From positions 1 to 37,975 of the IMG/VR virus record IMGVR_UViG_2534681604_000008: a stretch of 37,975 nucleotides of DNA. One strand, given 5' to 3'. Each line of letters starts with the position of its first letter. The first letter of the stretch is position 1. This document shows, in pieces, positions 13,981-17,226 of this stretch. The translations under genes were made by a program, and so were the position numbers. The DNA is from a virus. Taxonomy: Duplodnaviria > Heunggongvirae > Uroviricota > Caudoviricetes. Below the pieces are notes generated by a model, which was given only the letters and a program-made list of their open reading frames with translations, was not told the origin of the DNA and did no database searches.

Positions 13981-14623
13981 TGGCAGCAAATACCGAAATA
14001 TTTGGGTAGTTGGCGATCTGCACGGATGCTACACGAACCTGATGAAAAAACTGGAGACGATAGGATTCGACACCAAAAAAGACCTGCTTATCTCGGTTGG
14101 CGATTTGGTCGATCGCGGTACAGAGAACGTCGAATGTCTGGAATTAATCACATTCCCCTGGTTCCGAGCTGTACGTGGAAACCATGAGCAAATGATGATT
14201 GATGGCTTATCAGAGCGTGGAAACGTCAATCACTGGCTGTTTAATGGCGGTGGCTGGTTCTTTAATCTCGATTACGACAAAGAAATTCTGGCTAAAGCTC
14301 TTGCCCATAAAGCAGATGAACTTCCGTTAATCATCGAGCTGGTGAGCAAAGATAAAAAATATGTCATTTGCCACGCCGATTATCCTTGTAACGAATACGA
14401 GTTTGGAAAGTCAGTTGATCATCAGCAGGTAATCTGGAACCGCGAACGAATCAGCAACTCACAAGACGGGATCGTGAAAGAAATCAAAGGAGCGGACACG
14501 TTCATCTTTGGTCATACGCCAGCAGTGAAACCACTCAAGTTTGCCAACCAGATGTATATCGATACCGGCGCAGTGTTCTGCGGAAACCTCACATTGATTC
14601 AGGTACAGGGAGAAGGCGCATGA
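13958..14623 (+). CDS. ninI: NinI Ser/Thr protein phosphatase (lambda PPase family, calcineurin-like)
   Basis: 221 aa from the internal ATG; metallophosphatase motifs GDLHG, GDLVDRG, GNHE. Confidence 0.85.
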
Positions 14624-15243
14624 GACTCGAAAGCGTGGCTAAATTTCATTCGCCAAAAAGCCCGATGATGAGTGACTCACCACGGGCTACGGCTTCTGAC
14701 TCTCTTTCCGGTACTGATGTGATGGCTGCTATGGGGATGGCGCAATCACAAGCCGGATTCGGAATGGCTGCATTCTGCGGTAAGCATGAACTCAGCCAGA
14801 ACGACAAACAAAAGGCTATCAACTATCTGATGCAATTTGCACACAAGGTATCGGGGAAATACCGTGGTGTGGCAAAGCTCGAAGGAAATACTAAGGCAAA
14901 GGTACTGCAAGTGCTCGCAACATTCGCTTATGCGGATTATTGCCGTAGTGCCGCGACGCCGGGCGCAAGATGCAGAGATTGCCACGGTACAGGCCGTTCG
15001 GTTGATATATCAAAAACAGAGCTGTGGGGGAGAGTTGTTGAGAAAGAATGCGGAAGATGCAAAGGTGTCGGCTATTCAAGAATGCCAGCAAGCGCCGCAT
15101 ATCGCGCTGTAACGATGCTAATCCCAAACCTTACTCAACCCACCTGGTCACGCACTGTTAAGCCGCTGTATGACGCTCTGGTGGTGCAATGCCACAAAGA
15201 AGAGTCAATCGCAGACAACATTTTGAATGCGGTCACACGTTAG
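14620..15243 (+). CDS. Q: Late-gene antiterminator Q (lambda-type)
   Basis: 207 aa, near-identical to recalled lambda Q, including the zinc-finger cysteines CRDCHGTG...CGRCKG. Confidence 0.9.
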
Positions 15244-15285
15244 CAGCATGATTGCCACGGATGGCAACATATTAATGGCATGATA

Positions 15286-15313
15286 TTGACTTTTTGAATA
15301 AAGTTGGGTAAAT
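15286..15313 (+). promoter_or_regulatory. Late promoter pR' (with qut region)
   Basis: TTGACT, 16 nt, TAAATT in the context TTGACTTTTTGAATAAAGTTGGGTAAATTTGAC, matching lambda pR'. Confidence 0.7.
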
Positions 15314-15349
15314 TTGACCCAACGATGGATAAATGCACTCGTTAAATAA

Positions 15350-15377
15350 AGCCCTGAGTTAATATCTCGGGGCTTTT
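15350..15377 (+). terminator. tR'-like intrinsic terminator (end of a short 6S-type leader transcript)
   Basis: GCCCTGAG-(loop)-CTCGGGGC stem with one G-U pair, followed by TTTTT. Confidence 0.5.
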
Positions 15378-15799
15378 TGCGTTACAATCACAAAAGGAAG
15401 AGCGTTAGGTGAATCGGCGATACTGCCCCACAAGCCCGTTAATCGATAGAGGTAGACTAGCGCTCTTCCTTTTGTGCTGAATTAATCGAATGCCGGAAGC
15501 AGAACCGGATCACCAAATGCGTACAGGCGTCATCGCCGCCCAGCAACAGCACAACCCAAACTGAGCCGTAGCCACTGGCTATCCTGAATTCATCAGTGAT
15601 AGTTACGCTGCGGCCTTCTACACATGATCTTCGTGAAAGCGGGTGGCAAGAGGCTGCGCTAACAACCCCCTGCCGTTTTGCCCGTGCATATCGGTCACGA
15701 ACAAATCTGATTACTAAACACAGTAGCCTGGATTTGTTCTATCAGTAATCGACCTTATTCCTAATTAAATAGAGCAAATCCCCTTATTGGGGGTAAGAC

Positions 15800-16123
15800 A
15801 TGAAGATGCCAGAAAAACATGACCTGTTAGCCGCCATTCTCGCGGCAAAGGAACAAGGCATCGGGGCAATCCTTGCGTTTGCAATGGCGTACCTTCGCGG
15901 CAGGTATAATGGCGGTGCGTTTACAAAAACAGTAATCGACGCAACGATGTGCGCCATTATCGCCTGGTTCATTCGTGACCTTCTCGACTTCGCCGGACTA
16001 AGTAGCAACCTCGCTTATATAACGAGCGTGTTCATCGGCTACATCGGTACTGACTCGATTGGTTCGCTTATCAAACGCTTCGCTGCTAAAAAAGCCGGAG
16101 TAGAAGATGGTGGAAATCAATAA
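15800..16123 (+). CDS. S: Holin S (class I, dual-start motif MKMPEK)
   Basis: 107 aa [34 protein letters not shown]...; lambda S. Confidence 0.9.
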
Positions 16124-17084: not shown

Positions 17085-17226
17085 TGTCCGCAGTAAACGC
17101 GCATCTCACGCGCATATTAACGAGAGCCTTTCAGTAAGCGGGCCTGAGAATTGCCGTTATAGGTGGCGACCTCTCTCGGGCGGCTTTTCTGTGAGACAGG
17201 CTCACTTTCTAAAAGGTAAAGACGCT

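Follow-up and report, generated by a model that had tools for sequence, protein, structure and literature searches.

Short RNAs that start at the late promoter pR′ and are terminated soon afterwards have been described for phages 21, phi80, 82, P22, and lambda (PMC7547250). StxS of the Shiga-toxin phages is likewise a short, constitutive pR′ RNA, terminated at tR′ in the lysogen (PMC7547250). In lambda, the terminated RNA, known as 6S, is 194 nucleotides (nt) long (44587 to about 44780), and about 400 nt separate tR′ from the holin gene S (the T-run ends at 44779, with S at 45186). In mEp506, HK446, Kapi1, Sf6, and phage L, the slot between tR′ and the lysis genes holds tRNA cassettes (PMC8022706). 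The locus analyzed here is the late leader upstream of S at positions 15286–15799 of the IMG/VR virus record IMGVR_UViG_2534681604_000008, the whole 37,975 nt of which are herein referred to as the window. In the same slot, this locus contains an inverted repeat at 15389–15476. The repeat is a conserved RNA hairpin that is also present in lambda, and not a scar of the module junction, a point overlooked in the initial annotation.

The preferred reading, to which we assign a probability of about 55%, is that the late region combines pR′, qut, and tR′ of the HK97/P22 type with a leader of the lambda type, and that the conserved hairpin serves as a processing stem from which a small structured RNA would be released.

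Hairpin 15389–15476 and its counterpart in lambda

The promoter-proximal part of the region corresponds to the late regions of HK97, HK022, and P22-like phages. Their pR′, qut, and short terminator are 97.8% identical to positions 15244–15379 of the window (HK97 and the P22-like Salmonella phage Emek), and their Q gene is of the same lambda/P22 type. Past the terminator, HK97 and Emek have unrelated sequences without the CACAAC hairpin, and their homology to the window resumes only at 15629. In the window, sequence of the HK97/P22 type extends to about 15385, the hairpin occupies 15389–15476, and sequence of the lambda type, 96.3% identical to lambda over 323 nt, follows at 15477–15799. The right arm of the hairpin is already homologous to lambda, i.e., before 15477. 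Both the module junction and the return of lambda-like sequence upstream of S had been proposed in the initial annotation, and both were confirmed. By alignment, the hairpin consists of lambda-type arms around a foreign interior, lying between HK97/P22-type and lambda-type modules. The following features were assigned to this part of the leader.

15389–15408, plus strand: 5′ arm of the outer stem P1, CACAAAAGGAAGAGCGTTAG; found as an inverted repeat and by folding, homologous to the lambda arm CACAACAGGTAAGAGCATTG at 44787
15457–15476, plus strand: 3′ arm of P1, CTAGCGCTCTTCCTTTTGTG; found as an inverted repeat, homologous to the lambda arm ending at 44862
15409–15456, plus strand: interior of the hairpin, herein named cargo A; defined by homologues and covariation
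15409–15422, plus strand: joiner of cargo A, GTGAATCGGCGATA
15423–15427/15451–15455, plus strand: inner stem P2 of cargo A, CTGCC/GGTAG; defined by covariation
15428–15450, plus strand: conserved 23-nt loop of cargo A
15477–15799, plus strand: lambda-type untranslated leader of the lysis genes; defined by identity to lambda

The repeat had been placed initially at about 15393–15474 with a length of 13 bp. Its presence was confirmed, and the arms proved to be 20 nt long. They are 95% complementary (19 Watson-Crick pairs and one G·U pair) and are separated by 48 nt. The resulting 88-nt hairpin starts ten nt past tR′, and its 20 contiguous pairs amount to about two helical turns of near-continuous double-stranded RNA, as in substrates of RNase III. 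A 96-nt RNA containing the hairpin folds with −38.7 kcal/mol (z = −5.35), and none of 200 shuffled sequences folded as well. The hairpin is not an intrinsic terminator, having a 48-nt apical region and a stem followed by CTGAATTAAT with no U-run. No matches to Rfam 15 were found in the window at the gathering threshold, the only ones being sub-threshold matches at chance level (E ≥ 0.8). Hammerhead, twister, and pistol ribozymes were considered and rejected, as their cores are absent and no Rfam match was found. The hairpin was not found in the late region of the DLP12 prophage of E. coli K-12.

The lambda hairpin (44787–44862) lies in the same place as that of the window, 7–10 nt after tR′, and has homologous 20-bp arms (CACAACAGGTAAGAGCATTG/CCAGTGCTCTTTCCGTTGTG in lambda, CACAAAAGGAAGAGCGTTAG/CTAGCGCTCTTCCTTTTGTG in the window). 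The differences between the two pairs of arms are compensatory (A-T to G-C, C-G to A-T), and a U·G wobble occupies the same stem position in both. In contrast, a bulged A and a U·U mismatch of the lambda stem are absent from the window stem, and the two interiors are unrelated over most of their length. A family of hairpins with the ends CACAAC...GTTGTG is represented in lambda itself, where the reference records leave it unannotated. The phage record MW057783.1, “Campylobacter phage CJLB-4” (48,361 bp), has a late-region match identical to that of lambda and is probably a lambda contaminant under another name.

Compared with the phages having tRNA cassettes in this slot, the window has the hairpin and no tRNA, while mEp506 has tRNAs and no hairpin. 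In mEp506 (locus L003, 575–730), HK446, and Kapi1, tRNA-Asn and tRNA-Thr replace the hairpin together with about 80 nt after it. The flank GCGTTACAAT accompanies the window-type hairpins even behind other terminators (loci L012 and L016).

The stem family and the conserved interior

IMG/VR was searched first with the arm sequence and next for long stems with the ends CACAA[AC]...[GT]TTGTG. In total, 127 sites in phage loci were found by the stem scan. In about 0.9 Mb of unrelated bacterial DNA, used as a negative control, the hairpin finder gave at most one borderline site. The control loci came from a loose scan of genome contigs with GNCCGTNAATCGANAGAG, which gave chance matches in unrelated bacteria, including at least 138 pattern hits without the rest of the motif.

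Pairing was counted in 34 distinct arm pairs with a custom script, MAFFT having put the bulged and unbulged stems out of register. In these arm pairs, 97.1% of the cells are paired, and at least two types of Watson-Crick pair occur at 13 of the 19 positions. The outer five to six pairs of the stems (CACAAC...GTTGTG) are invariant. In 53 of 54 cases, mismatches read as G·U and not as A·C on the same strand that carries the nearest tRNA gene. This agreement argues for selection on the RNA, transcribed in the direction of the tRNAs and the late genes. A literature search with the motif sequences gave only unrelated primer matches, and the family appears to be undescribed in Rfam and in the searchable literature.

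The 73 distinct elements contain, under the same arms, at least 23 unrelated interiors, which range in length from 27 to about 117 nt; some of these interiors carry hairpins with sequences like a tRNA T-loop. The elements often begin 1–2 nt after the 3′ ends of tRNAs (Asn, Thr, Arg) or just past the leader terminator. In E. coli phage-plasmids of about 110 kb, the order is tRNA-Asn, tRNA-Tyr, tRNA-Thr, a hairpin with cargo A, a hairpin with a lambda-like interior, and tRNA-Ser. In lambdoid contigs, the hairpin comes after a leader terminator, often with a tRNA behind it. The lambda hairpin, together with its interior, is 90–97% conserved in unrelated phages.

One phage-plasmid of about 114 kb (E. 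coli plasmid NZ_CP010153.1, locus L205) has three hairpins, at 1865–1986, 2501–2589, and 2641–2719, located within or just upstream of a tRNA array Asn-Tyr-Thr-Ser. The three share the CACAAC...GTTGTG ends and differ in their interiors; the arms of one of them are entirely different yet complementary (GTTGAGGCCA/TGGCCTCAAC). Escherichia phage C1 (locus L369, 1296–1795) and Shigella phage DS8 (locus L370) contain the lambda hairpin with its interior in an intergenic position, antisense to the tail genes. In C1, a strong promoter-like sequence TTGACA-17-TAGATT (10 of 12 consensus positions) lies upstream of the hairpin, and a hairpin with a T-rich run lies about 190 nt downstream. From this layout, the C1 element looks like a stand-alone non-coding RNA unit.

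Cargo A was found under four different closing stems: the window-type arms, the lambda-type arms, a 12-bp stem (locus L036), and a 7-bp stem in Klebsiella phage-plasmids, where it lies 8 nt upstream of tRNA-Asn. The inner stem P2 occurs as CTGCC/GGTAG, CAGCC/GGCTG, CTGAC/GTCAG, and ATGAC/GTCAT around a 23-nt loop that is almost invariant. Across 19 homologues, 90.5% of the cells are paired, and both sides have changed in 9 of the 16 pairs. The covariation score is 0.551 versus 0.19 in shuffles (0 of 500 reach 0.551) and is no higher than 0.10 with slid partners. Judged from these comparisons, cargo A is an independently conserved, covarying structured motif. It quite probably functions as an RNA in its own right.

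A covariance model of cargo A, R1, gave 50 full-length matches and no match in lambda, HK97, Emek, or mEp506. Weak R1 matches in loci L187, L048, and L065 look like chance, L187 being GC-rich and without the hairpin. Cargo A was found in 101 complete E. coli genomes, at 16 chromosomal places and 86 on plasmids. It matched no tRNA model and no Rfam family, and in ten related loci Rfam matched tRNAs only. A small peptide encoded in cargo A was rejected as a candidate: the substitutions between E. coli and Klebsiella are not coding-like, and the stop codon is not conserved.

The most variable base of the loop (15440–15446 and homologues) is the N of GTNAATCG, which is T in the lambdoid sequences and A or G in the phage-plasmids. 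The string GTNAATCG reads like the anticodons of Asn, Tyr, and His followed by the AATC of the tRNA-Asn anticodon arm, which may be due to chance. Two further places, the 5′ joiner and the lambda-like interior, have the string GT(G/T)AATCG, again possibly by chance.

Processing of the stem and alternative explanations

In the proposed mechanism, without Q, RNA polymerase would release an RNA of about 58 nt in place of the 194-nt 6S RNA. With Q, it would pass through a structured leader of 421 nt into the genes S, R, and Rz. The long stem would then act as a double-stranded processing signal, with host RNase III as the most plausible nuclease. A cut in the stem would separate the late mRNA from its qut/tR′ leader and free the tip as a small RNA. 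Stems of the same type may punctuate the tRNA arrays of phage-plasmids and help to trim the adjoining tRNAs, and the conserved arms could supply homology for the exchange of tips between phages.

The stem is read as a processing signal because of its length and because of its position, which flanks RNAs that need to be released. RNase III needs a stem of about 20 bp. Its stems flank 16S and 23S rRNA, and the early mRNA of T7 has RNase III sites. By analogy, these stems are also long duplexes that flank a released RNA or punctuate a polycistronic transcript. However, they are not conserved in sequence between unrelated cargoes, whereas in the CACAAC family at least 23 different cargoes are closed by the same unchanging terminal 6 bp. 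Daniels et al. (1988), as cited in PMC7547250, reported sites of RNase III processing in the late RNA of lambda. A processing role of the stem, if real, would account for the way in which lambdoid late transcripts yield tRNAs and small RNAs, and temperate phages would have in it a new slot for accessory RNA genes. The excision of tRNAs from the late transcript is listed as unknown in the phage L genome paper (PMC8022706).

Several observations weigh against this reading. RNase III is not sequence-specific, which leaves the invariant CACAAC/GTTGTG ends unexplained, as it does the conserved bulged A, U·U mismatch, and U·G wobble. The 7-bp closing stem of cargo A in the Klebsiella phage-plasmids is too short for RNase III. 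The covariation in cargo A represents about six independent lineages, and a metagenome scan with a stricter pattern gave the same contexts, chance matches in coding DNA, and no new lineages. The orientation in the count of 34 arm pairs was picked by the number of G·U pairs, so that only the comparison with the tRNA strand is independent. Finally, a consensus terminator scanner passed over the tR′ hairpin, and the terminator is recognized by its fold and homology; the hairpin was probably passed over since three of the T's sit inside the stem. The invariant ends, the bulge, and the wobble may point to a specific protein partner instead. Taken by itself, cleavage of the stem by RNase III falls a little short of an even chance.

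The hairpin might instead be a mere structural or stability element of the late mRNA, protecting its 5′ part or serving as punctuation, with the interior as a neutral passenger. The tolerance of the same arms for at least 23 unrelated interiors agrees with this view. A neutral passenger, however, would not be expected to stay near-invariant over about 50 nt in E. coli lambdoid prophages, in phage-plasmids of E. coli and Klebsiella, and in an unrelated contig, as cargo A does. Nor would it be expected to occur under four closing stems while its inner helix undergoes compensatory changes, and the conservation of the lambda interior in unrelated phages also speaks against it. We regard this explanation as unlikely.

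A wider view starts from processing and goes further. In temperate enterobacterial phages and phage-plasmids, the CACAAC...GTTGTG stem would act as a generic “excision cassette” for RNA, through which any small structured RNA could be expressed from a late leader or tRNA array and exchanged by recombination. The cargoes, including the 48-nt motif of the window and others with tRNA-like T-loop hairpins, would be small RNAs acting with the neighboring phage tRNAs, e.g., by serving as decoys for tRNA-attacking nucleases of the host or by helping to counter them. A weak hint, which may be chance, is the likeness of GTN-AATC in cargo A to the anticodon loops of tRNA-Asn, tRNA-Tyr, and tRNA-His. The tRNA-Thr(UGU) of the HK446 late leader is reported to counter the OLD tRNase (preprint 10.64898/2026.07.10.737580), and a link between cargo A and the counter-defense tRNAs in the HK446/mEp506 slot would be a guess. 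As a whole, this extension is speculative and has a small chance of being correct.

Selection could also act on DNA, with the inverted repeat forming the ends of a miniature transposon or a hairpin/cruciform recombination site like attC of integrons. The conservation of the CACAAC/GTTGTG termini around variable content, in many genomic contexts, would fit such an element, as would the stem of about 20 bp with a variable tip, which resembles the attC geometry. Against this, mismatches that read as G·U on the strand shared with the tRNAs, in 53 of 54 cases, are expected of RNA and not of DNA. No target-site duplication lies beside the arms in the window or in lambda, the arms and interiors assort independently, and in the loci examined the elements are accompanied by neither a transposase nor an integron integrase. 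Unlike copies of a miniature inverted-repeat transposable element, the hairpins lack a duplication flanking the arms, have unrelated bodies from copy to copy, and show a strand-specific pattern of mismatches. We consider a DNA element very unlikely.

Given the tRNA-Asn and tRNA-Thr genes at the same position in mEp506, HK446, and Kapi1, the hairpin might be a decayed tRNA gene, a remnant of the cassettes in this slot. Some sister elements have hairpins like a tRNA T-arm, and CCGTTAATC in cargo A is close to the anticodon loop of tRNA-Asn, CTGTTAATC; the shared 7-mer is nevertheless within chance expectation. ARAGORN found no tRNA genes in the window, and the Rfam tRNA models gave no match with E up to 10 at 15280–15800 and missed the sister elements. 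Two helices and a 23-nt loop do not make a cloverleaf, and compensatory changes are not expected to persist in a pseudogene. This origin is, if anything, slightly less probable than a DNA element.

Late promoter, short leader RNA, and neighboring genes

The remaining features of the late region, all on the plus strand, lie between the Q and S genes or are these genes themselves.

14620–15243, plus strand: gene for the Q antiterminator, lambda type, 207 amino acids; open reading frame (ORF) with Pfam Antiterm PF03589, E = 2.4e-57
15286–15343, plus strand: late promoter pR′ with qut; found by consensus scan and homology to HK97, Emek, and lambda
15286–15291, plus strand: −35 element TTGACT; found by consensus scan, 17-nt spacer to the −10 element
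15309–15314, plus strand: −10 element TAAATT; found by consensus scan
15321–15378, plus strand: predicted terminated leader RNA of about 58 nt, counterpart of the lambda 6S RNA; based on fold and homology
15348–15378, plus strand: predicted intrinsic terminator tR′; stem 15348–15358/15366–15376, T-run 15374–15378
15800–16123, plus strand: holin gene S, 107 amino acids; ORF with Pfam Phage_holin_3_1, E = 2.4e-30

The window belongs to a lambdoid prophage or phage, because a lambda-type Q gene lies upstream of the leader and S, R, and Rz lie downstream, and 15244–15799 is its late regulatory region. The gene order is Q, late leader, S, endolysin gene R, and Rz. The C-terminal 99 residues of Q are 98% identical to lambda Q, and the Q stop codon at 15243 precedes the −35 element by 42 nt. 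As identified by homology, the region is built from known modules.

The promoter match to the consensus is not significant alone (2 found versus 2.2 expected in shuffles). Positions 15286–15343 are assigned to pR′ by homology, because of their identity to the late promoters of HK97, Emek, and lambda: the block 15286–15346 is 98.4% identical to those of HK97 and Emek, and the stretch up to 15343, covering the promoter, the Q-binding region, and the first 23 or so transcribed nt, is 87.9% identical to lambda pR′, which is served by the same type of Q. In the Emek annotation, the stretch homologous to the pR′ region is given as the qut site. The motif AACGAT, which starts the 6S RNA at lambda 44587, recurs at 15321–15326, so that the transcript start (+1) is predicted at 15321 by alignment, with AACGAT as a −10-like element at +1 to +6. 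The roles of the Q-binding and pause elements are established in lambda. Three properties of a lambda-type Q-dependent late promoter are therefore present: an adjoining lambda-type Q gene, a sigma-70 promoter with a conserved interval between −35 and −10, and AACGAT.

The predicted terminator begins about 30 nt into the transcript. Its stem is GC-rich, with 11 bp and the 7-nt loop TTAATAT, and its stretch (15344–15391) is 91.7% identical to HK97 and Emek; the homologous hairpin in Emek is annotated as a rho-independent terminator. The 59-nt RNA 15321–15379 folds into two hairpins with −21.7 kcal/mol (z = −4.94). The homology to lambda stops at 15343 (about +23), the rest of the leader RNA being of the HK97/P22 type. 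Since it shares neither the length of about 194 nt nor full-length homology with 6S, the RNA of about 58 nt is, by alignment, the HK97/P22-type counterpart of the 6S RNA and not its homologue. It also has no sequence relationship with StxS. Another promoter-like site, TTAATA-18-TACAAT (9 of 12), overlaps tR′ at 15359–15388 and is directed into the hairpin; it is not significant alone, with 2.2 such sites expected by chance in the scanned region.

The distances given in the initial annotation were reproduced. From +1 at 15321 to the T-run at 15378 there are about 58 nt (about 60 nt in that annotation), making the leader RNA much shorter than the 194 nt of lambda 6S, and 421 nt lie between the end of the T-run and the S start codon at 15800 (about 420 bp). 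The arrangement was not found to be unusual. Alignment to known late regions identified a common, already characterized variant: the terminator segment matched 95 phage records, including HK97, HK022, HK140, mEp235, and many Salmonella phages, among them P22-like ones, and the block of promoter and terminator (at least 80% coverage) was found in 332 of 5,426 complete E. coli genomes. Sixteen complete E. coli genomes and about 10 IMG/VR contigs contain the full arrangement; among the sequenced isolates in the phage collection, none has the exact combination (80% coverage). By these matches, the short leader is the standard HK97/HK022/P22-type form, and the arrangement is an ordinary one, already known.

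The proposal that the short pR′–tR′ spacing and the module junction alter Q antitermination is the least likely of all the explanations considered: the terminator does start only about 13 nt beyond the counterpart of the lambda +16/+17 pause and the initially transcribed sequence diverges from lambda after +8, but no such change is expected, because the short leader is common and shared at 97.8% with viable HK97, HK022, and P22-like phages, Q is of the lambda type, the Q proteins of lambda and P22 are reported to be interchangeable (PMC8022706), the tR′–S spacing is lambda-like, and qut and tR′ both precede the recombination joint. The short leader is itself of no consequence, while the hairpin may matter and merits a modest follow-up.

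The last 170 or so nt before S (15629–15799) are 96–98% identical in lambda, HK97, and Emek. They contain the alternative inverted repeats 15699–15707/15731–15739 and 15730–15742/15769–15781, and a small stem-loop, CCCC/GGGG, at 15780–15792 just upstream of the S start, which we take to be the structure called sdi in lambda. The whole 490-nt leader folds at z = −6.2, and the hairpin 15389–15476 is retained in this fold. The stretch 15629–15799 has the appearance of a structured 5′ leader that is conserved upstream of the lysis genes. The holin of Emek is annotated otherwise, as a holin family protein of 67 amino acids.

Downstream of Rz, a 174-amino-acid ORF (17191–17715) contains a T5orf172/MUG113 (GIY-YIG-like) domain. 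E. coli E10, which has the same late leader, has a KilA-N gene in place of this ORF, and the position after the lysis cassette is an accessory-gene slot.

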